Source: Dehalococcoidia bacterium
GTDB taxonomy: Bacteria; Chloroflexota; Dehalococcoidia; Dehalococcoidales; Fen-1064
Assembly: GCA_011170375.1 (NCBI GenBank)
Contig: DUEV01000009.1
Location: 1,694-65,693 of the forward strand
Length of the DNA: 64,000 nt
Reading direction: 5' to 3'
Shown piece after piece: positions 10,517-25,458 of the stretch. Numbering within the stretch: the stretch's first letter is position 1; every line of letters starts with the position of its first letter. A program made the position numbers and the translations under genes. The notes beneath the pieces are model-generated. The model saw nothing but the letters and a program-made list of their open reading frames with translations, was not told the DNA's origin and made no database searches.

Positions 10517-11269
10517 CTATTCGGCGGCAAGCTCCTGTTTCAGCTCGTCGACTATTCTCCTGACTTTTTTCTTGTGTTCCTCTCCGCCTATAGTGTACGA
10601 ATGAGGGACCCAGTTCATATCCTGCAGGTTTTCAACCATACTGGGGAGCAGGTCCCAGGGAATTGACATAAGTATCAGGCCTTCCGGAAAGAGTCGCCTC
10701 GATTTCATGCCGAATCCGAAGCCGGTGACCGTGAAATTCAGTTCACCGCTTGTGTATGGATAGATGTATAGCCAGGCACATCCTATTACCGGTGTTCCCT
10801 TGCTGCACCACAATTTTCCGCTTGTGTAGCTCATGGCTCTCAGTAGTATTTCAGCCTGACTCGTGCTGGCCGTAATAATTAATACGTCTGGCTCGAATGT
10901 CAGCTGGTCTAACGGAGAGAAAGCGACATAGTTAACAGTATCTTTGCCGAGTCTCGGAATGGCATGATAGAGTCTTCTATTGGCCCGTGCCTCCTTAAAT
11001 ACTTCCAGCTTGGGCCCCACTTGCCCGGCCTCGAAAATCGGGTCATGTTCCGTCATACCCAGTATCAGCGGCCCTATGCATGTGAAGTTCTCTTTGGTCA
11101 CATAAAAGGGACTGCTTTTTTGGGCTTCGACAAGCATCTCGCAAAAATCCAGAATCTTGTCCAGCCTCCCGATCCCATCTGGCTTCGTGAATAAGAACTT
11201 GACACCTACGGGTTGCGTCTCGAAGTTAAATTTGTCGAGTATGGACAGGTCCAGTTGCTCCGTGCCCAT
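10517..11269 (-). CDS. DUF169 domain-containing protein
   Basis: The N-terminus (F..QPVGVKFLF...DFCEML) is typical of DUF169 (COG2043). I placed the start at MGTEQLD, which follows a GGAAAGGAGG RBS. Confidence 0.6.
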   Translation of the reverse strand: MGTEQLDLSILDKFNFETQPVGVKFLFTKPDGIGRLDKILDFCEMLVEAQKSSPFYVTKENFTCIGPLILGMTEHDPIFEAGQVGPKLEVFKEARANRRLYHAIPRLGKDTVNYVAFSPLDQLTFEPDVLIITASTSQAEILLRAMSYTSGKLWCSKGTPVIGCAWLYIYPYTSGELNFTVTGFGFGMKSRRLFPEGLILMSIPWDLLPSMVENLQDMNWVPHSYTIGGEEHKKKVRRIVDELKQELAAE

Positions 11270-11296
11270 CTCTACCTCCTTTCCAGCCAATCCGGC

Positions 11297-12774: not shown

Positions 12775-13455
12775 ATGCCGACATGGAATGAGCTATTTAC
12801 TGATGAGCTATATGTGAACAGAATCCCTGAATCAGAAGTGAATCACTTTGTCGATGTGTTGGAAATGCTCTTCTCAGAGCGTCCGTTACGTCTCTGGGAT
12901 GTGTGCTGCGGAGGCGGGCGCCATACCATTGCCATGGCACAGCGTGGCCACAAGGTTTATGCCAGTGATAATGCTCCAAACGCCATCCGTCTCACCCAGG
13001 AATGGATATCTTCGCTCAATCTGGAAGTATACCTGGAGCTAGCCGACATGACTGTCTGCCCCTGGCCAGAGATGGGCTTTCACGGTGCTATTTCTTGGGA
13101 TTCGCTGTATCACAATACTCTGGACAATATGAAAAAGGCAGTCAGTGAAATTCACCGTCATCTCCTCCCCGGAGGGCTCTTCATGTGCACGCTTATGTCT
13201 ACGAAATCAGACAGCTTCGTTTGGGGTTGTGGACAACAAGTTGAACCTCGTACGTTTATCCTTGAAGACTCTGCTGATGCTGGGGTACCTCATCACTTCT
13301 GCGATGAGAGCGAGGTCAGGGAACTATTTCGGGATTGGGAATACCTGAGTCTGGCCGAGCAGGTCATTACCTATCTTGAACGCGGTAAAAACTTCTTAGA
13401 TTACAATCCCTTCCCCTTCACCAAGTGGGGTGTACTAGTGCGGAAAATATCCTGA
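12775..13455 (+). CDS. class I SAM-dependent methyltransferase
   Basis: Motif I is VCCGGGRH. I placed the start at the ATG (MPTWNELF), which follows a GAGAGGGGG RBS, rather than at the TTG at 12748. Confidence 0.7.
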   Translation: MPTWNELFTDELYVNRIPESEVNHFVDVLEMLFSERPLRLWDVCCGGGRHTIAMAQRGHKVYASDNAPNAIRLTQEWISSLNLEVYLELADMTVCPWPEMGFHGAISWDSLYHNTLDNMKKAVSEIHRHLLPGGLFMCTLMSTKSDSFVWGCGQQVEPRTFILEDSADAGVPHHFCDESEVRELFRDWEYLSLAEQVITYLERGKNFLDYNPFPFTKWGVLVRKIS

Positions 13456-13502
13456 TATCTGTTGCTGTAAAAAATCGCCTAGATACAATAAAAACAGCCT
13501 CC

Positions 13503-14828
13503 TCACCCCAGTTTATCTATCAGTCTGTGCAGGGGAGCGGCAATCTGGTCCTCCTGGACATGTGGCGAGTAACAACTATCAATCTGCACCAGCTTCGCCA
13601 ACGGCATACGTGAGGCAATAGCTACGGCCAGCTTGTCTACTGTCCCCGATACTATTTCCTCGGAGATTATTTGTGCCCCGACGAGCGTTTTCGTCTTGGC
13701 ATCAGCAATAAGCTTGTAGTGGGCCGGCTTGCCATTAAATCTATCCCTGAGTCGGGCTGTATCCACCGAAATGGAGACTGCTTCCAGTCCCTTTTCTTTG
13801 GCCTCTCTCTCGGTAAAACCGACTGTTCCTACTTGGTGGCCGAATATCTTGGTGACGAACGGCATCACCGTTCCTTCATAGGTAAGTTGATTGCCGGAGA
13901 CCGCGTTTCTGCCTGCAATGTACCCAGTTCTGATAGCATTGGCAGCCAGCTGGTGCTGCCTCTTCGAGCCGGTCACGACATCCCAGTTTTCCATGCAGTC
14001 CCCGATGGCATAGATATCAGGGTCGCTGGTCTGCAGGTTCTGGTTAACCACTATGGCGCCTGTTTCACCAATCTCCAGTATGGCTTTTTGGGCCAGTTCC
14101 ACGTTGGGTCTGGTACCAGTGGCAAAAAAGACGAAGTCCGCTTCTACCTCTCTGTCAGAAAGCAAGATGTGCTTTCGGTCTCCTTTGGTGGCCATGCTCT
14201 CTATCCTGGCCGGCAGTACCAGCTCAACTTCGTTCTGCATAAGAACATCTTTGATTCTCTCTGCCATGTCCTCGTCCAGATAGGCACGCATGATTCCCGC
14301 CCTGACAAGCAGGTATACTCTGCTGTAGCCTCTTGCTTTAAGGGCGTCGGCTATTTCCAGCCCGATAGACCCTCCACCGACAATGGCTGCTTCCTTGGAC
14401 CGGGTGATAGCTTCGTCCAGAGCAACGCCGTCTGTCATATCGGTGCTCAGGGAGAATTCGTTTTTATTATCCAGTCCCGGTACAGTAGGAATGACCGGGA
14501 CAGCACCCAGGGCGAGAATCAGCTTATCGTAGCCATACTCCTTGCCATCGGCGATGATGCACTTTTTCTGTCTGTCAATATCGGTGACCCGGGCATTCAG
14601 GTGAACGGTTGCATTTCTCCTCTCCCAGAAGGAGATTTCCCGAAAACCACGAACAAGCTCGTCCCAGGTGGCAACAGTCCTGCCAAGTACCAGAGGCATC
14701 TCGCAGGGAGGGCAGCCCAGGCTGGTCCTTTTGCTGAAGACGTCGATTTGTACCTCGCTATCCAGGCGTCGAACCTGATTTGCGGCTGTTGCGCCGCCAT
14801 CTCCAGTGCCCACGATGCAAACCTTCAT
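13503..14828 (-). CDS. FAD-dependent pyridine nucleotide-disulfide oxidoreductase (CoA-disulfide reductase / NADH oxidase family)
   Basis: An N-terminal GxGxxG (IVGTGDGGATAA) and a second dinucleotide fold (IVGGGSIGLE). The redox cysteine region is SLGCPPCEMP. Length is 441 aa. Confidence 0.8.
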   Translation of the reverse strand: MKVCIVGTGDGGATAANQVRRLDSEVQIDVFSKRTSLGCPPCEMPLVLGRTVATWDELVRGFREISFWERRNATVHLNARVTDIDRQKKCIIADGKEYGYDKLILALGAVPVIPTVPGLDNKNEFSLSTDMTDGVALDEAITRSKEAAIVGGGSIGLEIADALKARGYSRVYLLVRAGIMRAYLDEDMAERIKDVLMQNEVELVLPARIESMATKGDRKHILLSDREVEADFVFFATGTRPNVELAQKAILEIGETGAIVVNQNLQTSDPDIYAIGDCMENWDVVTGSKRQHQLAANAIRTGYIAGRNAVSGNQLTYEGTVMPFVTKIFGHQVGTVGFTEREAKEKGLEAVSISVDTARLRDRFNGKPAHYKLIADAKTKTLVGAQIISEEIVSGTVDKLAVAIASRMPLAKLVQIDSCYSPHVQEDQIAAPLHRLIDKLG

Positions 14829-14857
14829 TTTTTGCCTCCAGTCTGTAATCTACCGGT

Positions 14858-15169
14858 CTAAATACTATTGAACCACCTTTCTCGCCACTTCTTCATGTAC
14901 TCTTCCTCAGGATAGGTCCTAGCTATGTCTTCCTCGGTGAAGCTGTACTTGTAGTCACCGCAGTAACTCAATAGCAGTTTGTATGCCTCGTTTAATTTCT
15001 TCATCATCGAATCATCTTCGGCACCGTCACTGCCGTGCTTATCAGGGTGGTGGCGATGAGACAGCTTTCGATAGGCGCTTTTAATCTCCTTCATTGTTGC
15101 TGTCTCGCCCAGCCCGAGTAGCCTTCGTGCCTCATCTATGTCATTGAAGTTGACCACTTTCCCTATCAC
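14858..15169 (-). CDS. J-domain (DnaJ-like) protein
   Basis: 103 aa with KSAYRKLSHRHHPDKH, which contains the HPD motif. Confidence 0.75.
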   Translation of the reverse strand: MIGKVVNFNDIDEARRLLGLGETATMKEIKSAYRKLSHRHHPDKHGSDGAEDDSMMKKLNEAYKLLLSYCGDYKYSFTEEDIARTYPEEEYMKKWRERWFNSI

Positions 15170-15180
15170 ACCATAGATAA

Positions 15181-15498
15181 TTAGAGTAATGCCTTGATTT
15201 TCGGTTGAATCATGCTTTCTGGTACTGCACCCAGGATACCATCGACTTGCTGACCGTCTTTAAATAAGAGCAACAGTGGTATACTCATTACCCGATATTT
15301 CTGGGCCATCTCCGGGTTTTCATCTACATTGAGCTTGCAGAATTTGACCCTGTTAGCGTATTCTTCTGATAACTTCTCGGTCACCGGCGCAATGATGCGG
15401 CACGGCCCACACCAGGGTGCCCAGAAATCGACCACTACAGGTATATCACTTTTGATGACTTCGTTTTCGAAGCTCTGGTCATTTATTTCAGTTACCAT
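15181..15498 (-). CDS. thioredoxin
   Basis: WCGPC active site in a length typical of thioredoxin. I placed the start at MVTEIND, which follows an AAGGAGGTG RBS. Confidence 0.85.
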   Translation of the reverse strand: MVTEINDQSFENEVIKSDIPVVVDFWAPWCGPCRIIAPVTEKLSEEYANRVKFCKLNVDENPEMAQKYRVMSIPLLLLFKDGQQVDGILGAVPESMIQPKIKALL

Positions 15499-15520
15499 CG
15501 TCACCTCCTTTAGATTAATA

Positions 15521-15850
15521 CTATTCTTTGGCTGCCAGGTCCTTTTGCCTGAGCTTTTCAATTCGTTTAATTAAGTCGTCTGCCGTTTGCTTCAGCGAAC
15601 CAACCTCGGATGCTAGCTCTGCCTCCGAGACGGGGCGGCTCTCTACAATGGCTTCTTGCGGGCAGGCTTCGAGACAGAGGCGGCACTGGTTGCACCTGGC
15701 CTGGTTTATTTCAGCCGTACTGGTGATAATTGTAATTGCTTGCCGGGGACAGCTTTCGACACACAGCCCACAGCCAAGACATAGACTTTTCTTTATCCTT
15801 AGTATCGTTCCACTTCTCGGTCTAACATTCTCATTCATAGCAGTGTCCAC
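15521..15850 (-). CDS. 2x[4Fe-4S] ferredoxin-domain protein with C-terminal coiled-coil tail
   Basis: Two cluster motifs, CLGCGLCVESCP and CNQCRLCLEACP. The C-terminal about 35 aa form a heptad-like tail (SLKQTADDLIKRIEKLRQK). Confidence 0.8.
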   Translation of the reverse strand: MDTAMNENVRPRSGTILRIKKSLCLGCGLCVESCPRQAITIITSTAEINQARCNQCRLCLEACPQEAIVESRPVSEAELASEVGSLKQTADDLIKRIEKLRQKDLAAKE

Positions 15851-15853
15851 TAT

Positions 15854-16573
15854 TCATAACCCGGCAGCAGCCGTCGTCCCTTTCCCAGCAATCATTATCG
15901 TAAATCCAGCATCAGGGAAATAGCCTTCCCGGGACTCTTCCATATACTGCACCTCTCCCGGACTCTGGAAGAGGGTCGAGACAGTCATCTCGTTCACAAA
16001 ACCTGCCTGAGCCATGAGTCTTACAACCTCATCGTGTCCATAGAACGTGGCGTACTTGTAGAAACGATGGCCTTCTGCCTTCTTCGCTTGGTAAAACTGG
16101 CCCCAGGGACTTTCCGCCAGAACCAGCCCCAGTACTATCTTGCCTCCCGGCCTCAGGATGCGGTTCGCTTCCTTCAGAACATCCAGCGGCGAATCAAGAA
16201 AACACAGGGTTACAATTAAGAAGACCGTACCGAACGATTCTTCATCAAACAGTTTCTGTTCCCCTTCGCCCAGCAGGGTATTTATTCCTCTCTTCATTGC
16301 TATCTCAGTAAGCCTGGCTGACGGGTCAACCCCCGTCTCTATACCAAGTGCCTGGGCGAAGCGACCACTCCCCACACCTATTTCAAGCCAGGGCTTCGGC
16401 AGCGATGGTAATATTTCTTCAAACGCACGTACCTCAATAGGGAAGATGAGGCTTCCTTCTCTGTCGAACCAGGCATCATATTCCTGGGCCAGGTCGTCGA
16501 AGGGAGAAGTGAGGTCTTTTTGGGATTCCATCCCTGCTAGTGGTTGTGGAGCTCTATATTTGTCTGATGACAT
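15854..16573 (-). CDS. class I SAM-dependent methyltransferase
   Basis: Motif I is LEIGVGSGRF, and the post-I and motif II regions also fit. Length is 239 aa. Confidence 0.7.
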   Translation of the reverse strand: MSSDKYRAPQPLAGMESQKDLTSPFDDLAQEYDAWFDREGSLIFPIEVRAFEEILPSLPKPWLEIGVGSGRFAQALGIETGVDPSARLTEIAMKRGINTLLGEGEQKLFDEESFGTVFLIVTLCFLDSPLDVLKEANRILRPGGKIVLGLVLAESPWGQFYQAKKAEGHRFYKYATFYGHDEVVRLMAQAGFVNEMTVSTLFQSPGEVQYMEESREGYFPDAGFTIMIAGKGTTAAAGL

Positions 16574-16603
16574 CCTCGCTCCTTAAGGATATGCTCGATT
16601 TCG

Positions 16604-16954
16604 TTAACTTGATGAGTACTTCATTCCACTAATACTTTCGGACGTCGCGCTACTCAGCAAAGCTCTCAGTGAACTTCGCTCTTGAAAGCCAAGGAGCCTC
16701 TTTATCGGTTTTGAATTATGGAAGAGAAGGATGGTCGGTACAGCAATGACGTGATATCTTTCGGCTATCTCATAGCTCTCTTCCACGTCCAGCCTGACGA
16801 ATTTGACGACCCCGTGATACTCTCTGGCTAACTGGTCAGCGACAAGGCATGTAGCGAAGCAGGGCTGGCACCACTCGGTAGTGAAGCAGGCGAACACAGG
16901 CACTTCACATCCCAGCACTTCTTTTTCGAAATCTATTCCGGTAATTTCAATCAT
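16604..16954 (-). CDS. thioredoxin-like protein (WCQPC)
   Basis: 116 aa with a thioredoxin-fold pattern and a CxxC motif, WCQPC. Confidence 0.7.
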   Translation of the reverse strand: MIEITGIDFEKEVLGCEVPVFACFTTEWCQPCFATCLVADQLAREYHGVVKFVRLDVEESYEIAERYHVIAVPTILLFHNSKPIKRLLGFQERSSLRALLSSATSESISGMKYSSS

Positions 16955-17022
16955 CGTGGTAAATTTCTTCCGGTAATTCGAACCTCATAGCCTCAGATAG
17001 AGGTATTGTATTATTGTCATCC

Positions 17023-17472
17023 TCAGTATTTGCGGTACGCCTTTTTCCAGGGCTCTCGCTTCATTGCGATGCAGTCTCTTATGGCTGCTCTGAGGGTATT
17101 TGCCGCCAGTAGTGCGCAGTGCTCACTTTCCTGGGGAAGTCCGTCCAAGGCATCTAAAATGTCCTGTTGACTAATCCTCTGAGCTTCATCAATGCTTTTC
17201 CCTTTAATTATCTCGGTGATCATGCTGCCAGAGGCTATAGTTGTTCCACAGCCGTCAGTCATGAAGCTGGTATTGATAATGGTGTCGCCATTTACCTTCA
17301 GCCATATCTCCATGGTGTCGCCGCAGGGTCCCGTCACGCTGGCAAAGCCATCAGCATCTTGTATAATGCCTGCATTCCTCGGATTCATGGCGTGGTCAAT
17401 CACCGTTTCGGAATATAACTTACGGGCATCTGCAGATAATAATTCCTGAAGCTCATCAAATTCGGTAGACAT
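17023..17472 (-). CDS. IscU/NifU N-terminal-type Fe-S cluster scaffold protein
   Basis: Three conserved Cys contexts: GPCGD, DGCGT and HCALLA. Length is 149 aa. Confidence 0.8.
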   Translation of the reverse strand: MSTEFDELQELLSADARKLYSETVIDHAMNPRNAGIIQDADGFASVTGPCGDTMEIWLKVNGDTIINTSFMTDGCGTTIASGSMITEIIKGKSIDEAQRISQQDILDALDGLPQESEHCALLAANTLRAAIRDCIAMKREPWKKAYRKY

Positions 17473-17487
17473 TCTTTCGTCTCCTGC

Positions 17488-18492
17488 TCAGTTGCCCCCA
17501 GCCGTCAACGCCTGGACTAGGGATTCACCTAGCTTGGTAACTATTTCGCTGTCATATCGTTCAATACCACCCTCGTCACAGAGCCTGGCCAGTTCAGGAT
17601 CTATCGGCAACTGGCCCAGGAGGGGGGCGTTCACAGCACGAGCCATTTCCTCACCGCGGCTCTGGCCAAAAATCTCAATCTTCTTATCTATTTCAGGTAC
17701 ATACAGGTAACTCATATTCTCGACCACACCCAGAACACGCTTTTCCATTTTCCGGGCCATGTTCACTGCCTTACGGACAATCATTTCGACCAGGTCCTGA
17801 GGGGTAAAAACGACGACTACCCCCGAAATAGGAAATGATTGCATTAGCGTGAGTGGTGCGTCTGCGGTGCCAGGAGGCAGGTCAACAATCAGATAATCAA
17901 GCTTACCCCACAGCACCTCTTCACCAAACTGTTTGATGGCATTGCCAATAAGAGGGCCGCGCCAGATGACGGCGTCATCCTCGCTGGGCAGCAGAAGATT
18001 GATAGACATTACTTCGATACCTGAGGTCGAAAGTACCGGTAGTATCCCGCTCTCATTGCCACTTGGTCGGTCGTTGAGGCCGAACATCTTGGGTATACTC
18101 GGGCCGGTGATATCGGCATCCAGAATGCCTACCTCATAGCCATTACGATTTAGAGCCACCGCAAATAAGCTCGATACCAGGGACTTACCCACTCCTCCCT
18201 TACCACTCATCACGGCAATCATATGGTCAATGTCATTCAGCTCCGTTGCTTTGGCATCGGTGTATTCTGTCTTCACATCATTGACTTCGGGCAGTTGATT
18301 TATTGCTTCTTTTACTTTGGTACTTAGCCAGTCCTGTGCGCCTGGTATCAATCCGGTTGATGACAGGGTAACGTTTACTTCGTTATCGGAAATGGTTATC
18401 TCTCGCACCAAGTTCATCCCGACGATGCTGCGTTGTACGGCAGGCACCAGCACGGTTTCTAATTTCTCTTTAACCTGCTCCTCAGTTATCAT
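17488..18492 (-). CDS. Mrp/NBP35/ApbC family Fe-S cluster carrier ATPase with N-terminal DUF59-like domain
   Basis: Deviant Walker A SGKGGVGKS, plus the family pattern DLPPGT and a ParA-like core. Confidence 0.85.
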   Translation of the reverse strand: MITEEQVKEKLETVLVPAVQRSIVGMNLVREITISDNEVNVTLSSTGLIPGAQDWLSTKVKEAINQLPEVNDVKTEYTDAKATELNDIDHMIAVMSGKGGVGKSLVSSLFAVALNRNGYEVGILDADITGPSIPKMFGLNDRPSGNESGILPVLSTSGIEVMSINLLLPSEDDAVIWRGPLIGNAIKQFGEEVLWGKLDYLIVDLPPGTADAPLTLMQSFPISGVVVVFTPQDLVEMIVRKAVNMARKMEKRVLGVVENMSYLYVPEIDKKIEIFGQSRGEEMARAVNAPLLGQLPIDPELARLCDEGGIERYDSEIVTKLGESLVQALTAGGN

Positions 18493-18515
18493 AGTCTATA
18501 CTCCAATCTCATCCC

Positions 18516-18854
18516 CTAGTGGTCACAAATGTTATCTCCTGTAGCCAGCTGGCCGTCGAGATGGTTCAGGACCGCCTTCTCCGGGTCGCTTTCCAACGCA
18601 CCAAGAATGACTCCGATGCGATTTTGCTGGAAAAGGTTTTGTGCCCTGGAGCCCATCCCACCGGCAATCACAAAGGAGACGCCCTGCTCTGCCAGCCACT
18701 CTGGAAGAAGACCGGGCTGGTGTCCTGGTGACGGAACAAGCTCCTTCTTTAGAATCTCTCGTGTTTGCTCGTCGATGTCGAAAAGGGCAAAATGCTCGCA
18801 ATGACCGAAGTGCGGCGAGACTGCCCCATTGCTTACTGGTACTGCATACCTCAT
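18516..18854 (-). CDS. NifB/NifX-family (dinitrogenase FeMo-cofactor-binding domain) protein
   Basis: 112 aa. The segments HFGHCEHF.LFD and GVSFVIAGGMG match the Nitro_FeMo-Co domain pattern. Confidence 0.7.
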   Translation of the reverse strand: MRYAVPVSNGAVSPHFGHCEHFALFDIDEQTREILKKELVPSPGHQPGLLPEWLAEQGVSFVIAGGMGSRAQNLFQQNRIGVILGALESDPEKAVLNHLDGQLATGDNICDH

Positions 18855-18866
18855 AGCAACCTCCCT

Positions 18867-19160
18867 TTACTCATTTGTTTTCAGTTCGTATTCTGGCTTA
18901 CCTTCGTCGAAAGATATCCCAACAGTCACTTGTTTCCCCTCAGCAAGGTACCTTTCCGATTCGTCCCGCAGCCTACGTGACTCAGGAGATTTTAGAAATG
19001 AGACCAGCATTTCAAACCTCTCGGTCATCTCTTTATCATCTCCTACCGCTCTCAGCAGCGACAGAAGGCAGTTATTTAGCTCCTGCTCAGCCAGGCACTT
19101 GATGCACTTTCCGGGCACCTCACTGGTCGAATACCTGGGGTCGAGGTTAATTGTGTCCAT
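18867..19160 (-). CDS. hypothetical protein (97 aa, CxxC..C)
   Basis: ORF within the operon. I placed the start at MDTINLD, which follows an AGGAGGA RBS. The longer ORF-track version would overlap the upstream gene. I recognise no family. Confidence 0.45.
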   Translation of the reverse strand: MDTINLDPRYSTSEVPGKCIKCLAEQELNNCLLSLLRAVGDDKEMTERFEMLVSFLKSPESRRLRDESERYLAEGKQVTVGISFDEGKPEYELKTNE

Positions 19161-19173
19161 TTGACCTATCCTC

Positions 19174-19410
19174 CTAGTACCGTCGGCAAGTGTCCCCGGT
19201 GGAGCAGGGTGGCGCATCGCAACGCTCGTTCCGGCCACAGCAGGTAGTACCCGCAGCCTGACTACCTGACTTGATCATGTAGGACGCAGACACCAGCTTC
19301 TCAAGATTACCGCTACCACAATCAGGGCAACGAAGCGCTTGCTCACTACTGCGGACAAACACCTCCGAGACCTGGCTACAATCCAGACACTTAAACTCGT
19401 AAATTGGCAC
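19174..19410 (-). CDS. FmdB-family zinc-ribbon protein
   Basis: MPIYEFKCLDC....CPDCGS is the characteristic CxxC..CxxC N-terminus of this family. Confidence 0.75.
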   Translation of the reverse strand: MPIYEFKCLDCSQVSEVFVRSSEQALRCPDCGSGNLEKLVSASYMIKSGSQAAGTTCCGRNERCDAPPCSTGDTCRRY

Positions 19411-19472
19411 CTTCTAGCTTGCCTCCTTCCAGATGATTTTAGGTGAGACACACTGCCTCATGAACTGACACT

Positions 19473-19664
19473 TCAGGTGGGACCGCTCGGAGTACATGAA
19501 TTACCAGAAATTGTGAAAAAGGGAGAGAAGATACGGTGCGAATCCTCTGCCCCACACGCGGGACACTTTGCTTCCCGGTTGCTATCGCTCATGCTACGCC
19601 GTAGCTCGAAACGCTCACCACATTTAGTGCACTCGTATTCATAGATTGGCATGTCGTATGTCAC
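19473..19664 (-). CDS. FmdB-family zinc-ribbon protein
   Basis: MPIYEYECTKCG....CPACGA. It shows a 4-nt overlap (ATGA) with the upstream gene. The true start could instead be the internal MPIYEY. Confidence 0.7.
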   Translation of the reverse strand: MTYDMPIYEYECTKCGERFELRRSMSDSNREAKCPACGAEDSHRIFSPFFTISGNSCTPSGPT

Positions 19665-20533
19665 CCTTTGCTATCATTCTCAAGCATCGCCGAGAGAATG
19701 CTCCAGGTCCTTTCTATCTCCTCGGAGACTCTACCATCGGAATGCTCCACTACCGGTATTCCTTTGACAATCGACTGGGTTACAATATTATCAAAGGAAA
19801 TCTTCCCGGCTATTTTGACTCCTTGGTCCAAACAGCTACTCTCTATATGCTGTGTGTTTTCCTCATTCAGGTCGCATTTGTTTATGCAGACTAGGGGCAC
19901 TACGCCGAAGTGTCGGCAGACGCCAAGCACCCTCTCTAAATCGTGCATTCCAGAGAGAGTGGGCTCGGTCACCAGTAGAGCCAGATTGACTCCGGATAGC
20001 GACGAAATCACCGGACAGCCGATGCCTGGCGGACCGTCACTGATAATATAGTCCAAATTCCTCTCATTGGCAATTTGTTTGGCCTGCTGCCGGACTGCCG
20101 CTACCAGTTTTCCCGAGTTTTCTTGGGCGATTCCCAGACGGGCGTGAACCAGCGGTCCGTAACTGGTATCGGAGATGAACCAGTATCCAGACATATTCTC
20201 CCGCATAGTTATGGCTTCAACCGGGCATATGTGGGAGCAGAAGCCACAGCCCTCACAGGATACCGGATCAACCCTGAAATCCTTGATGGCATTAAAACGG
20301 CAAAGCTCCTGGCACAGACCACACTCAGTACAGCTGTCTTCATCTATACGAGCTACCTGGCCACTCCAGAACTCGCTTTTTTGTTGCTCTGAAGGGCTGA
20401 GTAGCAAATGGAGGTCGGCGGCATCCACATCGCAGTCGGCAAGCACCTTCCTTTTTGCCAAGGCAGCAAAGGAACCGACAATGGTGGTCTTTCCGGTACC
20501 TCCCTTACCGCTTAATACTATGATTTCTTTCAT
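19661..20533 (-). CDS. MinD/ParA-superfamily P-loop ATPase with inserted 2x[4Fe-4S] ferredoxin domain (COG1149-type)
   Basis: Walker A SGKGGTGKTT, and cluster motifs CTECGLCQELC and CEGCGFCSHICP. Confidence 0.85.
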   Translation of the reverse strand: MKEIIVLSGKGGTGKTTIVGSFAALAKRKVLADCDVDAADLHLLLSPSEQQKSEFWSGQVARIDEDSCTECGLCQELCRFNAIKDFRVDPVSCEGCGFCSHICPVEAITMRENMSGYWFISDTSYGPLVHARLGIAQENSGKLVAAVRQQAKQIANERNLDYIISDGPPGIGCPVISSLSGVNLALLVTEPTLSGMHDLERVLGVCRHFGVVPLVCINKCDLNEENTQHIESSCLDQGVKIAGKISFDNIVTQSIVKGIPVVEHSDGRVSEEIERTWSILSAMLENDSKG

Positions 20534-21372
20534 CCGTCAGTACTCTTCACTCTATTGTAAAGCTTCAGAAAGCTCTCCTTCCACTGCGGGAGCCCCTCGA
20601 CCAGAGGAATGCCCCGTGAATACAGGCGGGCAATCTCAATGTCCAAGGGAATAGTTAGTAGTACGGGAATATTCTCTTTCTTACAATACTCCTCTACTCT
20701 GCTGTCACCGACACCAGCACGATTGAGCACAACGCCGCAGGGGATGTTAAGTTCCCTCACCGTTTTGACGGCAAGGGCTAGGTCATTAAGCCCGAAGGGT
20801 GTTGGCTCCGTTACCAGCAAGCAAAAATCACTATCCTTAATGGCTTCCACTACTGGACAGGATGTCCCCGGCGGAACGTCGACGATAGCGGTGTCATCGT
20901 TGTTGGTATATTCCTTTACCTTCCTGATAACAGGTGGTGCCATCGCTTCGCCTACAGTGAGTTTACCCTGGACATAGCCCACACCATCCGCATGTCCCCA
21001 TTCAACAATCCCCGTTTCTCGACTCTCTTCGGAGATAGCATCTTCTGGACAGAGGTAGCTGCAGGCGCCACAGCCATGACATAGCTGGGGGAAGGTCAGC
21101 ACATGATTGCCCAGGACGGCAATGGCATTAAAGGCACATACCTGTGCACACTTACCACAGTAGGTACACTTGCTTTCGTCTACGCTGGGAACCAGTATTG
21201 ATACAGCTTCGCTGTCGACGATTTCGGGCTTTAGAAACACGTGGTCATTCGGCTCCTCCACGTCGCAGTCGAGAAGCTGCACCCTGTCAATATTCCTCAA
21301 AGAAAGGGCAAGGCTGGTGGCGACCAGGGTCTTACCCGTCCCTCCTTTGCCACTGGCAACTGATATAATCAT
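20530..21372 (-). CDS. MinD/ParA-superfamily P-loop ATPase with inserted 2x[4Fe-4S] ferredoxin domain (COG1149-type), paralog
   Basis: Walker A SGKGGTGKTL, and cluster motifs CTYCGKCAQVC and CHGCGACSYLCP. It overlaps the downstream paralog by 4 nt. Confidence 0.85.
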   Translation of the reverse strand: MIISVASGKGGTGKTLVATSLALSLRNIDRVQLLDCDVEEPNDHVFLKPEIVDSEAVSILVPSVDESKCTYCGKCAQVCAFNAIAVLGNHVLTFPQLCHGCGACSYLCPEDAISEESRETGIVEWGHADGVGYVQGKLTVGEAMAPPVIRKVKEYTNNDDTAIVDVPPGTSCPVVEAIKDSDFCLLVTEPTPFGLNDLALAVKTVRELNIPCGVVLNRAGVGDSRVEEYCKKENIPVLLTIPLDIEIARLYSRGIPLVEGLPQWKESFLKLYNRVKSTDG

Positions 21373-21409
21373 TCTAGCCTCTTAGACTAGTCCCGCTCCG
21401 GTGATGCAT

Positions 21410-22042
21410 CTATTTTTTCTTTTTTTCCAGCTCATCAATCCGGCGCTGGATTTCCGATAGCTGCTGAGCCATTGCTTGGGATTGGGCCTTAAGGGCGTCA
21501 AGTTCCTGCTCTGGGGACTGTGGCTGAGGTGCTGGGCCTGTAGGTGGACTCATGCCACCCCCCATCCCCATGCCTCTACCCATGCCACGGCCCATACCCA
21601 TACCACGGCCCATACCCATACCACGGCCCATGCCCCTGCCTCTGCCCATACCGGAGCCACCTCCCATCCCAGCCCCGCCACCCATACCAAAGTGGTCGGG
21701 CACGTTTGCCTGAGCGCTTGCCTGGAACTTGCCTGACTGGTAGCCCTCGATGACGTCCTTTATTTTACCAGAAATACCGGTCAATATTTGGATGCCGGCC
21801 GAGGACAACACCTGATAGGCGTTAGGCCCGCAGTTTCCGGTCAGGACAGCCTGCACACCCTTGTCGGCAATTGTCTGAGCAGCGGAGATACCGGCTCCAC
21901 CGGCTGCCATAGCACTGGAGTTGTCCATCGCCTCGAACTCCATTGTTGCCGGGTTGGCAATGATGAAATACTGGCAGCGTCCGAAACGGGGGTCAACCTC
22001 AGCATCTAATCCGGGACCGGTGGCTGAAATAGCAATCTTCAT
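21410..22042 (-). CDS. NifB/NifX-family domain protein fused to a Gly/Met/Arg-rich repeat and C-terminal coiled coil
   Basis: The N-terminal about 115 aa match the Nitro_FeMo-Co pattern (DPRFGRCQYF, GVQAVLTGNCGPNA). This is followed by GMGGGAGMGGGSGMGRGRGMGRGMGMGRGMGMGRGMGRGMGMGGGM and then the tail ELDALKAQSQAMAQQLSEIQRRIDELEKKKK. Confidence 0.8.
   Translation of the reverse strand: MKIAISATGPGLDAEVDPRFGRCQYFIIANPATMEFEAMDNSSAMAAGGAGISAAQTIADKGVQAVLTGNCGPNAYQVLSSAGIQILTGISGKIKDVIEGYQSGKFQASAQANVPDHFGMGGGAGMGGGSGMGRGRGMGRGMGMGRGMGMGRGMGRGMGMGGGMSPPTGPAPQPQSPEQELDALKAQSQAMAQQLSEIQRRIDELEKKKK
21585..21638. repeat. 18-nt tandem repeat (2 perfect units plus 1 degenerate) inside the CDS, encoding GMGRGM repeats
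   Basis: The unit CCACGGCCCATACCCATA occurs at 21585..21602 and 21603..21620, with a degenerate third unit at 21621..21638. Confidence 0.85.
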
Positions 22043-22045
22043 AGC

Positions 22046-22348
22046 TTATCCTTGCTCCTTCCCACTCTCTATTTCCTGTATCCTTGCCTCTATCTCTTTC
22101 AGGTCATCACTCATAGATTGGGACAGACCCCTAAGGTAATCGACCTCGTCTTGTCGGGATATCACTGGCGAGAATGGATAAGCTCCGCGATAAGGCACAC
22201 CCCACGGCACAGCGTATGGGTAGGGCATATATCGTGCCCTCCAGGCGTATCCCGGCCATACCGGCCGTATTGAGGTGGCGCAGAATCCTCTGCCGCCACC
22301 TGTCATCGGGCCTATCCCACGAGGACCGGTACCATCGAATCCTGGCAT
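22046..22348 (-). CDS. DUF5320 domain-containing protein
   Basis: The N-terminus MPGFDGTGPRGIGPMTGGGRGFC matches the DUF5320 signature. The C-terminal tail is a coiled coil, EVDYLRGLSQSMSDDLKEIEARIQEIE. Confidence 0.7.
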   Translation of the reverse strand: MPGFDGTGPRGIGPMTGGGRGFCATSIRPVWPGYAWRARYMPYPYAVPWGVPYRGAYPFSPVISRQDEVDYLRGLSQSMSDDLKEIEARIQEIESGKEQG

Positions 22349-22367
22349 GGTTGCCTCCTTTATAAGA

Positions 22368-22718
22368 TTAATCTTCCTTTTGTTCGCTCTCCAGACCCCT
22401 CATTCTGGACTCGATTTGCTCTAGCTGCTCCTTTACTGCCTCTGCCTGCTCCCTGAGGTAATCAAGCTCTTCTTCCCTGGTCATTTGGGGGGTGAAGGGT
22501 GCATATCCCGGGTAGGCAGGTTCTTGGCCGTAGAAGGGTGTCTGGTACGGCCATGGTTGCTCAGCACCAGGGCCACTGAAAAAATACCCGCAACGTGGTA
22601 GCCCTCCTCTACCTATCCCAACATAAGGCCAGGGAGGAGAAGCGCCTCGAAAGCCGAAGCCCATGCCTCTACCAAATCCACGGCCAAAGCCTCTTCCTCG
22701 TCCAAATCCATTAGGCAT
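22368..22718 (-). CDS. DUF5320-like protein with RG/FG-rich N-terminus
   Basis: The N-terminus is GRGRGFGRGFGRGMGFGFRG. The C-terminal tail is EELDYLREQAEAVKEQLEQIESRMRGLE. Confidence 0.6.
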   Translation of the reverse strand: MPNGFGRGRGFGRGFGRGMGFGFRGASPPWPYVGIGRGGLPRCGYFFSGPGAEQPWPYQTPFYGQEPAYPGYAPFTPQMTREEELDYLREQAEAVKEQLEQIESRMRGLESEQKED

Positions 22719-22745
22719 TTTTGACCTCCTCGAATGAACTTTTTT

Positions 22746-22955
22746 CTACCACCGTGGGTAGTAGTGGGGTGCGTACCAGCGCCTGCCGAAACCACGGCCT
22801 CTGCCACGGCCCCAGCCTCTCCAGCCAAAGCTGAACCACCGTCTTCGTGGCATCAGGCTGGCAAAACCGGGACGGCCGAAACCGGCGCAGTAGCCGGCAC
22901 CTCTTCCAGTCATTGGTCCCATTCCTCTGGGTCCAGTTCCATCTCCGAATGGCAT
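22746..22955 (-). CDS. DUF5320 domain-containing protein (short form)
   Basis: MPFGDGTGPRGMGPMTGRGAGYCAG signature followed by an RG-rich tail. It has no coiled coil. Confidence 0.65.
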   Translation of the reverse strand: MPFGDGTGPRGMGPMTGRGAGYCAGFGRPGFASLMPRRRWFSFGWRGWGRGRGRGFGRRWYAPHYYPRW

Positions 22956-23093
22956 TTACCTCACCTCCTCTTCACGCGATTTTTTTCATTTCATCAACAC
23001 TGACTGTCAAGATGCTCCTAATCGAAGCTGGTGTTTTCCTTGATTTTTGCCTCTGCCCAAAAGGCTGCTCTGACTCACGCTACAGTCAAACCC

Positions 23094-23567
23094 TTACCAG
23101 CCACGTCCTCCTCGATGGCGTCTCTTCCAACCACCTCTGCCCCGGCCCATCCCTGCGGGCAAGAGAGGCATTATACTCGGTGTTTCACACTCGGGGCAGG
23201 ACTCGGGTGGGGCAGATATCATGGCTTCAAAAGGAACATCCCATTCATGACCGTTAAGGCACTGGAACCGACTCCAGGCCATCTCAAAATTGCCACCCTC
23301 AATTCTCATTGCTTTTCCATTAAGGAGAGCGTTGGCTATTTTTTGCCGCGCGGAGGTCAAGACTCTTTGAAAGGTTGGGCGGGAGATATTCATTCTTTCC
23401 GCACCCTTCTCCTGTTCCAGACCTTCCAGGTCCTTGAGCCGTATTGCCTCAGCCTCCTCTACCGAGAGAACAATTTCGTCAAGGACTCTCAGTGGCACAC
23501 CGGTTGGCTTGAAATATGTTGTTTGTGGCAGGAATGCGACTCGGCGGCATTTTTGCGGTCTTGGCAT
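23094..23567 (-). CDS. DUF134 (UPF0251) family putative DNA-binding protein with C-terminal zinc ribbon and GR-rich tail
   Basis: The N-terminus MPRPQKCRRV....F.P.G is the DUF134 hallmark. An HTH-like segment (ISRPTFQRVLTSARQKIA) follows, then C..H...CPEC, and the tail GMGRGRGGWKRRHRGGRGW. Confidence 0.75.
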   Translation of the reverse strand: MPRPQKCRRVAFLPQTTYFKPTGVPLRVLDEIVLSVEEAEAIRLKDLEGLEQEKGAERMNISRPTFQRVLTSARQKIANALLNGKAMRIEGGNFEMAWSRFQCLNGHEWDVPFEAMISAPPESCPECETPSIMPLLPAGMGRGRGGWKRRHRGGRGW

Positions 23568-23592
23568 ATCTGAATCATTTCCTCGTTTATAT

Positions 23593-23606
23593 TGAGCATA
23601 TGCTCA
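23593..23606. promoter_or_regulatory. perfect 14-bp palindrome TGAGCATATGCTCA, candidate operator of the DUF134-led operon
   Basis: It lies 26 nt upstream of the DUF134 ATG, immediately downstream of the predicted -10 element at 23613..23618. Confidence 0.4.
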
Positions 23607-23612
23607 TAATGT

Positions 23613-23641
23613 ATATTAACATATGTCTATGTGTTAGTCAA
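23613..23641 (-). promoter_or_regulatory. sigma70-like promoter of the 19-gene operon (-35 TTGACT, 17 nt spacer, -10 TAATAT)
   Basis: The minus strand reads TTGACT-N17-TAATAT. A GAGGA RBS precedes the DUF134 ATG. Confidence 0.5.
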
Positions 23642-23713
23642 TATTGTCGAGGTAATGTCCGGGTGAGTTTGAATTACGCCGGATGCGGTGTATTACCTGA
23701 GAACACGAATAAG

Positions 23714-23758
23714 TTGTTAACCGTTAGGTTGTAGGTTGGAGTCCTACCCGGGGAGCCA
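23714..23758 (+). pseudogene. displaced 3' half of tRNA-Asn (anticodon loop to CCA), direct repeat of 12528..12572
   Basis: 42 of 45 nt are identical to the 3' part of the intact tRNA-Asn. There is no 5' half upstream. The roughly 95 nt downstream (to about 23860) also resemble the sequence downstream of the intact tRNA (12573..12670). Confidence 0.8.
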
Positions 23759-23964
23759 ATTATTTCTACCTAATTTAAGCTAATAACCTCGGGTGGCAGG
23801 TTTGGACCGCACCCAGGGGCATTTCTTCTGAGTCATTACAATCATGTCGTCATCCCGGTGTTTGTCTGATATAGAAATGTTCCCTTTATTAATTCATTTG
23901 ACGCTGAATGTGCAGAGTATGTATATTTGTAGGAATAGTTGCTCTCCGCACTGAAGGAGGCGTA

Positions 23965-25458
23965 ATGCAAAAGACAATAATGATAATTGGGGCTGGCTTA
24001 GCTGGCTTATCAGTCGGGTGCTACGGCCAGATGAATGATTACAACACCCGTATCTTCGAAATGCACGACAAGCCCAGGGGACTATGCACCTCCTGGAAAC
24101 GTAAGGGTTATACCTTTGATGGGTGCATCCATTGGCTGATGGGTTCCGGGTCTGGCAACTTCCACCGCTTATACGAGGAACTGGGGGCAGTACAGGGTCG
24201 ACGTATGATCAATCACGATGAGTGGATGCGCTTTGAAGGGCTCGAAGGAGAGACATTCATCGTATACACAAACCTCGAGCGCCTGGAACAGCATATGAAG
24301 GAACTGTCCCCTTCGGACGCCAGTGTAATCGAAGAGCTCTGTAATACTGCACGTTCCTTAACACCCCGTGATTTGCCGGTAGAAAAGCCCGCAGAGCTGA
24401 TGGGACTGTCTGACTTACTCAAGGTGATTAAGGCGATACCGATAATGCGAGTCATACGTCAGTACAGCAAGATATCAAATCAGGACTATGCGTCACGCTT
24501 CAGCAATCCTTTCTTGCGTGAGGTATTCCCATTGATATTAGATGATATGCCCAACTTGTCATTGATGGCCGTACTGTGGTTACTAACAAATTCACACATA
24601 CATAACGCAGGTTGGCCTGTCGGTGGCTCACTAGAATTTGCCCGATCCATAGAAAAGCGTTATCTTAGTCTGGGCGGTGAAGTGCAATACCATGCACCTG
24701 TTGAGAAAATCCTGGTCGAAAACGACCGTGCTATAGGTGTGCGCCTTGCTGACGGTACCGAGCATCACGCTGACCTGATTGTCTCCACTGCTGATGGTCA
24801 CACCACCATCTTTGACATGCTGGATGGCAAGTATGTCAATGACGAGATACGCTCCTACTATAATGAGTGGCCTATATACCAACCGATGATCCAGATCTCA
24901 CTAGGGGTAGCGCGCGACTTCTCGAATGAACCCCGTTCGGTGAAAATTCTTCTCGAGGAGCCGATCAATGTCGGCAACGAGGTTCGCAGCTGGCTACATT
25001 TCCATCACTACTGCCATGACCCTGCTATGGCCCCACCTGGTAAGTCTGTGGTCGTGTTTGAATTCCTGAATAATGACTATGCGTATTGGAAAGAGCTCTA
25101 TGAGGATCGTGAGCGCTACAAGGCAGAAAAAGAGCGTCTTGCTAATGCAGTTATTGACCAGCTGGAACGGTGTTTCCCCGGTGTCAAAGATGAAATAGAG
25201 GTCGTGGATGTAGCTACCCCGGTAACATACGAGCGCTACACCGGCACTTGGCAGGGTTCCTACATGGGCTGGGCTGATACTACCGGAAAGTTCGGTAAGT
25301 CCATGAGTAGAACACTTCCGGGACTGGGTAGTTTCTCTATGGCCGGACAATGGGTCTACTTTGGAGGCGGTGTACCCGGTGCAGTGATGTCGGGTCGGCA
25401 CTTGATACAAATTATCTGTAAAGAAGATAAGAAGAAGTTTGTAACCAGCGCTCCATGA
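23965..25458 (+). CDS. NAD(P)/FAD-dependent oxidoreductase, phytoene desaturase (CrtI)-like family
   Basis: The N-terminal dinucleotide motif is IIGAGLAGLSVG. The product is about 500 aa with a family-like C-terminus. I placed the start at MQKTIMIIGAG, which follows a GAAGGAGG RBS. Confidence 0.7.
   Translation: MQKTIMIIGAGLAGLSVGCYGQMNDYNTRIFEMHDKPRGLCTSWKRKGYTFDGCIHWLMGSGSGNFHRLYEELGAVQGRRMINHDEWMRFEGLEGETFIVYTNLERLEQHMKELSPSDASVIEELCNTARSLTPRDLPVEKPAELMGLSDLLKVIKAIPIMRVIRQYSKISNQDYASRFSNPFLREVFPLILDDMPNLSLMAVLWLLTNSHIHNAGWPVGGSLEFARSIEKRYLSLGGEVQYHAPVEKILVENDRAIGVRLADGTEHHADLIVSTADGHTTIFDMLDGKYVNDEIRSYYNEWPIYQPMIQISLGVARDFSNEPRSVKILLEEPINVGNEVRSWLHFHHYCHDPAMAPPGKSVVVFEFLNNDYAYWKELYEDRERYKAEKERLANAVIDQLERCFPGVKDEIEVVDVATPVTYERYTGTWQGSYMGWADTTGKFGKSMSRTLPGLGSFSMAGQWVYFGGGVPGAVMSGRHLIQIICKEDKKKFVTSAP

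Follow-up and report, generated by a model that had tools for sequence, protein, structure and literature searches.

Gene content and organisation of the cluster

We analysed a 64,000-nucleotide stretch of the Dehalococcoidia bacterium contig DUEV01000009.1 (hereafter the window), which carries at 13503..23567 a cluster of 19 open reading frames (ORFs), all co-directional on the minus strand and forming a putative single operon. The cluster opens with a DUF134 regulator and continues with genes for DUF5320 proteins, NifX-domain proteins, MinD-like ATPases with an inserted ferredoxin domain (MinD-Fd1 and MinD-Fd2), zinc ribbons, an Mrp-like ATPase, an IscU-type scaffold and a set of thiol-redox and accessory proteins. 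It is most likely an extended, differently regulated version of the orange protein (ORP) cluster found in anaerobes and partly characterised in Desulfovibrio, and not a new system.

All 19 co-directional genes reported in the first-pass annotation were present in a six-frame ORF list, and a Pfam profile search confirmed every family that it had named, with 18 of the 19 ORFs assigned and the one it had called hypothetical still lacking a family. Gene starts were taken from public gene calls on an identical contig (identical contigs are present in two metagenomes). The genes are closely packed, as had been described: 15 of the 18 junctions measure 37 nt or less, although the 'several' 4-nt overlaps mentioned earlier come down to two. 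The larger gaps are 138 nt between DUF134 and DUF5320a, 68 nt between IscU and the thioredoxin-like gene, and 62 nt. GGAGG-type ribosome binding sites precede most cluster genes. No Rfam match was found across 13000-24200, and terminator-like and promoter-like sites in the cluster region occur at chance level (15 promoter-like sites against 10.6 +/- 3.7 in shuffled sequences). The features of the cluster, in order of transcription, are as follows.

23613..23641, minus strand: sigma-70-type promoter candidate, TTGACT-17-TAATAT with an extended -10 TG, 9/12 consensus matches
23590..23609, no strand assigned: candidate DUF134 operator, a 20-bp element whose core is the perfect 14-bp palindrome TGAGCATATGCTCA
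23094..23567, minus strand: DUF134 regulator, 157 aa (Pfam PF02001, E 1.3e-24, 87 bits)
22746..22955, minus strand: DUF5320a, 69 aa (PF17253, E 5.7e-15)
22368..22718, minus strand: DUF5320b, 116 aa (PF17253), RG/aromatic/Pro-rich N-terminal part and C-terminal coiled coil
22046..22348, minus strand: DUF5320c, 100 aa (PF17253, E 3.2e-15), N-terminal motif and coiled coil
21410..22042, minus strand: ORP/IssA-like NifX-domain protein with a tail, 210 aa (PF02579 Nitro_FeMo-Co, E 1.3e-23)
20530..21372, minus strand: MinD-Fd1, P-loop ATPase with an inserted 2x[4Fe-4S] domain, Orp3/Orp4-like (CbiA/ParA and two Fer4)
19661..20533, minus strand: MinD-Fd2, second paralogue with an inserted 2x[4Fe-4S] domain, overlapping the first by 4 nt and 32% identical to it
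19473..19664, minus strand: FmdB-type zinc ribbon protein 1, 63 aa (PF09723, Zn_ribbon_8, E 3e-17)
19174..19410, minus strand: FmdB-type zinc ribbon protein 2, 78 aa, with a Cys-rich C-terminus (PF09723, E 2.5e-14)
18867..19160, minus strand: small protein of ~97 aa with a CxxC...C motif (no Pfam or NCBIfam match)
18516..18854, minus strand: second NifX-domain protein (NifX2), 112 aa (PF02579), corresponding to the Di-Nase half of MrpORP
17488..18492, minus strand: Mrp/NBP35-like P-loop ATPase with N-terminal DUF59 (PF10609, 299 bits; PF01883, FeS_assembly_P)
17023..17472, minus strand: IscU/NifU-N scaffold (PF01592, E 9e-34; TIGR03419, 136 bits, under its cut-off)
16604..16954, minus strand: thioredoxin-like protein, WCQPC (PF00085, E 1.3e-15)
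15854..16573, minus strand: class I S-adenosylmethionine (SAM) methyltransferase (PF08241, Methyltransf_11)
15521..15838, minus strand: 2x[4Fe-4S] ferredoxin with a C-terminal helix (Fer4 families)
15181..15498, minus strand: thioredoxin, WCGPC (PF00085, E 3.7e-32)
14858..15169, minus strand: small J-domain protein, 103 aa, HPD motif present (PF00226, E 7e-14)
13503..14828, minus strand: FAD flavoprotein of the CoADR / NADH oxidase / persulfide reductase family (Pyr_redox_2 and Pyr_redox_dim)

Conservation of the core and its relationship to the ORP complex

One genome per species was scanned with an alignment of both MinD-Fd paralogues, giving 80 loci of 52-82% identity from Chloroflexota, Omnitrophota, Desulfobacterota, Planctomycetota, Ignavibacteria, Zixibacteria, Bacillota and Bipolaricaulota as well as from Bathyarchaeia, Methanocellaceae, Methanophagales, Methanohalophilus and others. 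Co-occurrence was counted as the share of these loci with a co-strand match within 10 kb, six-frame ORFs being searched with the window proteins; the shares are lower bounds, owing to the number of short contigs and to divergent members that escape single-sequence phmmer. The second MinD-Fd paralogue was found in 94% of the loci (the two paralogues being adjacent in 75 of the 80) and a NifX-domain protein likewise in 94%, with two or more in 74%. The remaining shares were 47% for Mrp (68% in long non-Chloroflexota loci), 42% each for the zinc ribbon and DUF5320, 36% for IscU, 25% for DUF134, 16% for the methyltransferase and 12% for the ferredoxin, while five flanking genes taken as controls reached at most 1% each. 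Because of these shares we regard the core as a conserved, ancient module of anaerobes. The single 19-gene module of the first-pass annotation is therefore borne out by synteny as far as the core goes, whereas the thioredoxin, J-protein and flavoprotein genes, outside close relatives, accompany it in only 4-7% of loci and so are an extension peculiar to the lineage of the window.

The best-matching genome loci come from metagenome-assembled genomes (MAGs) of Dehalococcoidaceae and Dehalococcoidales. Relatives whose MinD-Fd is 79% identical to that of the window carry, in this sequence, DUF134, DUF364, DUF5320 genes, the tailed NifX gene, a zinc ribbon and the MinD-Fd pair, followed by NifX2, Mrp, IscU, a radical SAM gene, the methyltransferase, a PF04060 Fe-S protein, the flavoprotein, thioredoxin and DnaJ. 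A second close relative keeps the flavoprotein and lacks Mrp, IscU, thioredoxin and DnaJ. The small ~97-aa protein has homologues in Chloroflexota clusters and is a lineage-specific member.

We also noted extra genes in close relatives (L003 7220-7975, 13594-14364 and 15201-15542; also L005), namely a DUF4213/DUF364 'heavy-metal chelation' gene directly after DUF134, and radical SAM and PF04060 Fe-S protein genes within the cluster. In both of these loci the cluster has a molybdopterin oxidoreductase, a CsoR-type repressor, a ZIP transporter and MobB as neighbours.

Each MinD-Fd protein combines a P-loop with two CxxCxxCxxxCP motifs, and the eight ferredoxin Cys residues are 100% conserved among ~80 homologues. 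A further Cys in switch II (PPGTSCPV / PPGIGCPV) is 99-100% conserved in both paralogues (Cys172 in MinD-Fd1, 99%), Cys36 of MinD-Fd1 (DCDVE) is 98% conserved, and MinD-Fd1 also has a conserved W...F..L C-terminal helix. Many proteins of metagenome-assembled Dehalococcoidia and Chloroflexota are 80-90% identical to the window's MinD-Fd protein, and a PDB search returned no solved structure that spans the complete protein. A finer structural assignment of MinD-Fd1 was abandoned, the AlphaFold2 model having been built from a shallow alignment (pLDDT 62, with the ferredoxin insert and switch regions below 50); on this low-confidence model Foldseek retrieved only the MinD/ParA/NifH/BchL/ApbC/HypB superfamily, at TM ~0.5. 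We likewise dropped the equation of Cys172 with NifH Cys132, as BLASTP against an approximate A. vinelandii NifH aligned only the segment from Walker A to switch I, including the C-D pair.

In Desulfovibrio vulgaris, two paralogous P-loop proteins, Orp3 and Orp4, each carry two [4Fe-4S] motifs; Orp5 and Orp8 each consist of a single Di-Nase (Nitro_FeMo-Co) domain, and Orp9 is MrpORP, a fusion of an Mrp/NBP35 ATPase to a Di-Nase domain that binds Fe-S clusters and transfers them to Orp3/Orp4, the Orp proteins together forming a complex (PMC6345978). Like the ORP complex of D. vulgaris Hildenborough, the window encodes two adjacent MinD-like ATPases with two [4Fe-4S] motifs each, two PF02579 proteins corresponding to the single-domain Di-Nase proteins (one of them best matching the ORP structure 2WFB) and an Mrp-type ATPase tied to a Di-Nase domain with HFGHCE...CDH, and both types of cluster are restricted to anaerobes. 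Judged from these families and motifs, the core is very probably homologous to ORP-type clusters. The first-pass annotation had regarded the COG1149-type ATPases as having no experimentally defined function; studied relatives do exist, in that the core corresponds to the D. vulgaris ORP complex (PMC6345978). Among the papers searched, none treats the function of DUF5320, DUF134 or COG1149 as such.

The two arrangements also differ in several respects. The ORP genes form two divergent sigma-54 operons under OrpR/IHF, whereas the window holds one co-directional cluster in which OrpR is replaced by DUF134, with a palindromic candidate operator and a sigma-70-like promoter. MrpORP is one protein in the ORP complex; in the window its halves are encoded by two adjacent genes in reversed order, and the P-loop half carries a DUF59 domain and is without the CXXC motif. 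Three DUF5320 genes, two zinc ribbons, IscU and the thiol-redox, J-protein and flavoprotein set are additional.

The division of MrpORP is evident from NCBIfam model NF041136 (MrpORP), which the Mrp-like protein matches over positions 2-233 (315 bits) and NifX2 over positions 265-365 (120 bits); it is the best NCBIfam model for both proteins, each score lying under the cut-off of 450. NifX2 carries HFGHCE...CDH, with Cys19 conserved in 88% and Cys110 in 100% of homologues, and the motif has been proposed as the ligand set of the MrpORP Di-Nase [3Fe-4S] cluster (PMC6345978). The Mrp-like protein has an intact deviant Walker A motif (SGKGGVGKS), a PF10609 core and an N-terminal DUF59 domain in common with the Mrp/NBP35/ApbC carriers, in which a CXXC motif ligates a bridging [4Fe-4S] cluster.

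The IscU-type scaffold has its full ligand set (Cys50/Asp52/Cys75/His118/Cys119), and the three Cys residues are 100% conserved in 34 homologues. It reads LPQES (LPQESEHC) in place of LPPVK, which we take to be the motif used at that place in E. coli IscU for binding of an HscA-type chaperone. An IscU-type scaffold and a J-domain protein occur in one cluster, as in the ISC system (IscU with HscB/HscA); in contrast to ISC, the window cluster includes neither a cysteine desulfurase nor an Hsp70 gene, and its J-protein is a minimal 103-aa J domain and not HscB. PF02579 is also found in NifX, NafY and the C-terminal domain of NifB, and the first-pass annotation had drawn on their binding of FeMo-co. 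The shared domain stands, at fold level only, since NifX/NafY carriers belong with nitrogenase genes and, as had been reported, no nitrogenase, NifB or NifEN is encoded among window ORFs of >=150 aa; the closest structures are those of ORP and the MTH1175 type, and not of NifX or NafY.

Among the genes downstream of IscU, the methyltransferase has its best PDB match in 1VLM, T. maritima TM1293 (E 5e-39). Orthologues are found in Chloroflexota clusters, and other class I methyltransferases lie within clusters of other phyla. The NifX-like structure 1O13 is presumably TM1290, and the locus tags TM1290/TM1293 would then suggest the same methyltransferase-NifX neighbourhood in Thermotoga. The last gene of the cluster had been described as an FAD disulfide reductase (CPPC) heading a chain through thioredoxin to ferredoxin. 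Closer comparison gave no support for this chain: the protein is homologous end to end to P. horikoshii CoADR (best PDB matches 5L1N/3KD9, E 1e-54), its Cys42 aligns with the catalytic Cys of that enzyme, and it shares these features with the wider group of CoADR, NAD(P)H sulfur reductases and persulfide reductases (3KD9; Shewanella Npsr 3NTD). It differs from CoADR in scoring under the equivalog cut-off of TIGR03385 (290 against 579 bits) and in an extra Cys39 that creates the CPPC motif. CPPC was rejected as a conserved dithiol centre, as the motif varies (IPPC in the closest orthologue, from L003, and CNPC in L019), and a thioredoxin reductase was rejected in favour of a CoADR/persulfide-reductase-like protein. 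CoADR-family flavoproteins, two of them with rhodanese domains, adjoin ORP-like clusters in Desulfobacterota.

The two rhodanese-bearing proteins (L063 13130-14827 and L048 16864-18594, from Desulfobacterota-type MAGs) carry the rhodanese domain at the C-terminus, which is the persulfide-reductase architecture.

The DUF134 regulator and its candidate operator

DUF134 scores above the gathering threshold of PF02001. Its helix-turn-helix is similar to sigma-70 region 4 and is accompanied by a C-terminal C-x4-H...CPxC ribbon and a tail rich in Arg and Gly (RG tail). The Cys/His ribbon and the RG tail, which is DUF5320-like, are kept in homologues from Chloroflexota, Zixibacteria and Ignavibacteria. 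The promoter had been called canonical in the first-pass annotation, a term too strong for a site with 9/12 matches and a frequency not above chance; the candidate at 23641..23613 is nevertheless probably genuine, because a layout of TTGACA-N17-TAnAAT followed by the palindrome recurs upstream of DUF134 in relatives. No sigma-54-type site was found upstream of the cluster, matches elsewhere in the window being at chance level.

The palindrome follows the -10 box and precedes the DUF134 ribosome binding site, 22 nt ahead of the ATG, and its consensus across relatives is TTATGAGCATAYGCTCATAA. Among the fetched genome loci, nine from Chloroflexota, one from Zixibacteria and two from Ignavibacteria have the element at the corresponding position ahead of DUF134, and in two loci without an adjacent DUF134 it immediately precedes structural genes. 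Its conservation upstream of DUF134 extends over four phyla. Exact matches to the degenerate 16-mer were observed at 12 loci of the fetched DNA, against ~0.1 expected by chance. As an independent test, metagenome contigs were scanned with the 20-mer alone; at least 120 stretches matched, from which 80 loci were taken. A DUF134 homologue is encoded in 65 of these 80 loci, in 55 of the 65 starting no more than 200 nt downstream of the 20-mer (mostly 5-30 nt), and in four further loci DUF5320 follows directly downstream. We found no publication describing a DUF134 palindrome or operator in a literature search.

We consider the palindrome a candidate DUF134 operator, through which DUF134 would autoregulate and control the cluster. 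Its location over the transcript start suggests repression by DUF134.

DUF134 is also coupled to NifX domains. DUF134-Nitro_FeMo-Co fusions occur in four unrelated loci (L035 665-1462, L143 8007-8912, L117 2419-3267 and L131 1193-1882), and in five of five tested loci that otherwise lacked a detected neighbour the gene after DUF134 encodes a divergent His-rich Nitro_FeMo-Co protein. From this coupling the signal read by DUF134 would appear to be related to the ligand of the NifX domains.

A minimal two-gene module was noted in L089, L106, L111, L113 and L156, made up of the palindrome, DUF134 and a divergent ~130-aa Nitro_FeMo-Co protein that contains a His-rich insert (e.g. HGHGQHHHGEEH), with no MinD-Fd genes nearby. 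Within the window, a second copy of the operator at 50230-50245 (ATGAGCGTATGTCCTT), ~45 nt upstream of prfA (50290-51360), was discarded as probably coincidental, since it has one mismatch and 0.26 such matches are expected by chance.

Cationic tails, proposed function and surroundings of the cluster

The tailed NifX protein consists of the Nitro_FeMo-Co domain, a (GMGR)n tail and a DUF5320-type coiled coil, and its best PDB matches are ORP 2WFB (E 1e-21) and then MTH1175. The tail comprises residues 113-165 (53 residues with 49% G, 11% R, 1-2% aromatics and pI 12). PF17253 scores of 56.7, 30.4 and 57.5 bits were obtained for the DUF5320 proteins and 37.5 bits for the NifX tail, against a cut-off of 27. 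DUF5320 proteins begin with the motif MPxxDGTGPxGxGPMTGRGxGxC (36 of 49 locus homologues), have a middle part rich in Arg, Gly, aromatic residues and Pro (G 15-26%, R 9-19%, aromatic 13-22%, one Cys) and, in two of the three (DUF5320b and DUF5320c), end in a coiled coil; DUF5320a is short and entirely cationic without a coiled coil (pI 11.9, G 26%, R 19%, aromatic 22%). A hidden Markov model (HMM) of the DUF5320 C-terminal coiled coil matches DUF5320b, DUF5320c, the NifX tail and, across the loci, 36 NifX-type ORFs. NifX proteins with (GMGR)n tails are present in Chloroflexota, Desulfobacterota, Clostridia, Bipolaricaulota and one archaeal MAG, and a query with DUF5320c returned 493 representative clusters at E <= 1e-3. 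We rejected the idea that the C-terminal helix of the ferredoxin (15521-15838) is a DUF5320 coiled coil, as the DUF5320 C-terminal HMM gives no match to it.

IssA of Pyrococcus furiosus is an iron-sulfur storage protein that binds thioferrate and forms nanoparticles. Its tail is Pro-rich and then Gly/aromatic/Arg-rich, has a single Cys and a pI of 10.7, and has been suggested to wrap around thioferrate, which is anionic; the same authors remarked on a mesophilic 'IssX' clade that is uncharacterised (PMC5524996). IssA-clade NifX homologues are more abundant in pyrite-grown Methanococcus voltae (PMC9431491). IssA and the window's tailed NifX protein have in common a NifX-type domain (IPR003731/PF02579) and a disordered, cationic, Gly-rich and Cys-poor tail. 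They differ in that the window tail is (GMGR)n, aromatic-poor and followed by a coiled coil, in that tail-like modules also occur free-standing as DUF5320, and in context, the window NifX protein sitting in an ORP-type cluster. Compared with the published description, the DUF5320 proteins match the IssA tail in Gly/Arg/aromatic/Pro make-up and single Cys, and they look like free-standing IssA-type tails with a coiled coil. The tailed NifX protein may work like IssA, and we do not call it an IssA.

Taking regulator, carriers and ATPases together, we are modestly inclined to see the cluster as a regulated system for holding and handing over iron-sulfur or related metal-sulfur species, as predicted from its gene content. 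DUF134 would be a dedicated transcription factor acting on the 20-bp palindrome and autoregulating the cluster, a role supported by comparison, and might read cargo status through its Cys/His ribbon and RG tail or, elsewhere, through a fused or adjacent NifX domain. The tailed NifX protein and the MrpORP-type Di-Nase protein are predicted by homology to carry the metal-sulfur species, and the (GMGR)n tail with the three DUF5320 proteins could together act as a multimeric, polycationic matrix holding an anionic species, in the manner suggested for the IssA tail with thioferrate. MinD-Fd1 and MinD-Fd2 would pair in an ATP-dependent manner, and the heterodimer, with its four [4Fe-4S] clusters and conserved switch-II Cys, would couple nucleotide state to electron or cluster transfer. 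Supply of clusters may come from the IscU-type scaffold and from the Mrp-like ATPase that lacks CXXC, together with its Di-Nase partner. The add-on of two thioredoxins, ferredoxin, methyltransferase, J-protein and CoADR-like flavoprotein might keep ligand thiols reduced or supply sulfide from sulfane sulfur, and the latter would fit the absence of a cysteine desulfurase.

Several observations weigh against this proposal. As first reported, no cysteine desulfurase is encoded among window ORFs of >=150 aa; the general idea of a metallocluster module is reasonable, and the epithet 'self-sufficient' given to it is doubtful in a cluster that has no sulfur-mobilising enzyme. The Mrp-like protein belongs to the Mrp/ApbC family as annotated and yet lacks the cluster-binding CXXC (it reads ENMSYLYVPEIDKK, with VPEI at that place) and has one Cys in 334 aa, so that canonical binding of a bridging cluster is impossible. 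CPxC is present in 31 of 41 cluster-linked Mrp homologues, all from other phyla, and the motif is lost in the other 10, the window protein and nine Chloroflexota-type homologues. By operational IssA criteria (pI >= 9, <5 Cys and >=20% Gly in the C-terminal 40 residues) the tailed NifX protein falls short, with pI 8.95, 2 Cys and 0% Gly in its last 40 residues, the last value because the coiled coil comes after the tail; its tail is also aromatic-poor (1-2%), unlike that of IssA. DnaJ, flavoprotein and thioredoxin accompany the core in 7%, 5% and 4% of the 80 loci, and may be functionally separate from it. Neither a terminator nor an internal promoter could be assigned in the cluster, and its status as one mRNA is a prediction. 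The likeness to ORP is drawn from families, motifs and the published description of the D. vulgaris proteins. Finally, a part in cell division has been proposed for the Desulfovibrio ORP complex, and the cluster bound by the orange protein is of Mo-Cu-S and not Fe-S (PMC6345978).

Four other explanations were considered. The cluster may consist of two merely adjacent units, an ORP-type core from DUF134 to IscU and an unrelated thiol-redox and proteostasis set, a possibility that we find doubtful and still take seriously. The 68-nt gap, the largest internal one after the regulator, falls exactly between IscU and the thioredoxin-like gene, that WCQPC gene is not found in relatives L003 and L005, and the low shares of thioredoxin, DnaJ and flavoprotein point the same way. 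The 79%-identical relatives, however, have flavoprotein, thioredoxin, J-protein and methyltransferase inside the cluster, reordered and interleaved with the radical SAM and Fe-S protein genes; CoADR-family flavoproteins, in part with rhodanese domains, come after ORP-like clusters in Desulfobacterota as well, and all genes of the window cluster are co-directional with short gaps. An RGG-type role for DUF5320 and the RG tails, binding nucleic acid such as G-quadruplexes and not a mineral or cluster, seems very unlikely. A motif scan flagged an RG-rich putative quadruplex-binding motif in DUF134 and DUF5320 of Methanosarcina mazei (PMC7565180), and the RG tail is also present on the DNA-binding regulator DUF134; yet NifX carrier domains of many phyla bear this tail and coiled coil as a fusion, the DUF5320 genes lie within the cluster between regulator and carriers, and thioferrate binding by such tails has a precedent in IssA.

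The other two follow from what is known of orange protein and of Orp localisation. Handling of heterometallic Mo/W-(Cu)-S species, whether as thiomolybdate buffering or detoxification or as supply to molybdo- or tungsto-enzymes, would be modelled on the [S2MoS2CuS2MoS2] cluster of orange protein, whose structure 2WFB is the best PDB match of the first NifX protein. Weak hints of Mo/W also come from the neighbours of L003 and L005 (molybdopterin oxidoreductase, CsoR-type metal repressor, DUF364/DUF4213, ZIP transporter and MobB), but the window is without these neighbours, its cluster includes no Mo/W transporter or cofactor gene, and IscU and Mrp are Fe-S specific partners, so we judge this explanation unlikely. 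We think it quite unlikely, too, that the cluster is a redox-controlled spatial or cell-division system, in which MinD-like ATPases would place a complex at the pole or septum and the metal clusters would be redox sensors only. It is favoured by the description of the orp genes as putatively acting in septum positioning, the polar location of MrpORP, the MinD-like C-terminal amphipathic helices of Orp3/Orp4 and the conserved W...F..L helix of MinD-Fd1, as well as by archaeal MinD being the best match of the ATPase parts in the PDB and by Foldseek. No MinC, MinE or FtsZ-related gene was found in or near the cluster, its constant partners are the cofactor-carrier and scaffold families NifX, IscU and Mrp, its regulator is fused elsewhere to NifX domains, and the cell-division role in Desulfovibrio is itself only putative.

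A more specific version of the holding and hand-over proposal is that DUF5320 and tailed NifX proteins constitute a widespread, unrecognised thioferrate- or condensate-like Fe-S store in mesophilic anaerobic Bacteria and Archaea. In such a store cationic Gly/Arg/aromatic segments would wrap an anionic Fe-S polymer, with the shared coiled coils serving as cross-links between particles; ATP and low-potential electrons would allow the MinD-Fd heterodimer to load the store or reductively unload it, and DUF134 would sense its fill state through a NifX domain or RG tail and switch the operon through the 20-bp palindrome. We put forward this whole scheme, including the roles of MinD-Fd and DUF134, as a tentative and rather improbable one.

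Strict anaerobes rely heavily on Fe-S enzymes, while Fe-S storage, traffic and sensing in them are poorly known, and the ORP complex and many non-nitrogenase NifX-domain proteins have been open problems for more than 10 years. The present locus and its relatives link the ORP complex, MrpORP and IssA, until now studied apart. To these they add a precise candidate operator for DUF134, recurrent DUF134-NifX fusions that point to the sensed ligand, a testable role for DUF5320 and a natural CXXC-less Mrp variant. The variant described here is set apart by DUF134 regulation, the DUF5320 genes, a split CXXC-less MrpORP and a lineage-specific redox extension. Were the storage and hand-over model true, Dehalococcoidia, sulfate reducers, methanogens and many candidate phyla would possess a general layer of Fe-S homeostasis specific to anaerobes.

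Two genes downstream of the cluster, at window 10517-11290, lies a DUF169 (COG2043) gene. Locus L015 of Dehalococcoidales has two DUF169 homologues, one on either side of a CoADR-family flavoprotein, directly after its ORP-like cluster; this hints that DUF169 is loosely associated with ORP-like clusters. Further downstream are two tandem minus-strand paralogues of ~1270 aa each (2471-6307 and 6529-10326), both with N-terminal zinc ribbons, a Ser/Thr protein kinase domain and an AAA_16 ATPase domain, and one with TPR repeats. Elsewhere the window contains a bacterial serpin gene at 37291-38571 (PF00079, E 6e-119) and, at 46075-49909, four tandem HAD-family hydrolase genes with two NUDIX hydrolase genes interleaved. 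Near the end of the window, at 60179-63975, a B12-binding radical SAM/DUF4070 gene is located between two phage-type integrase genes; the GC content there falls to 46%, a possible sign of the boundary of a mobile element.

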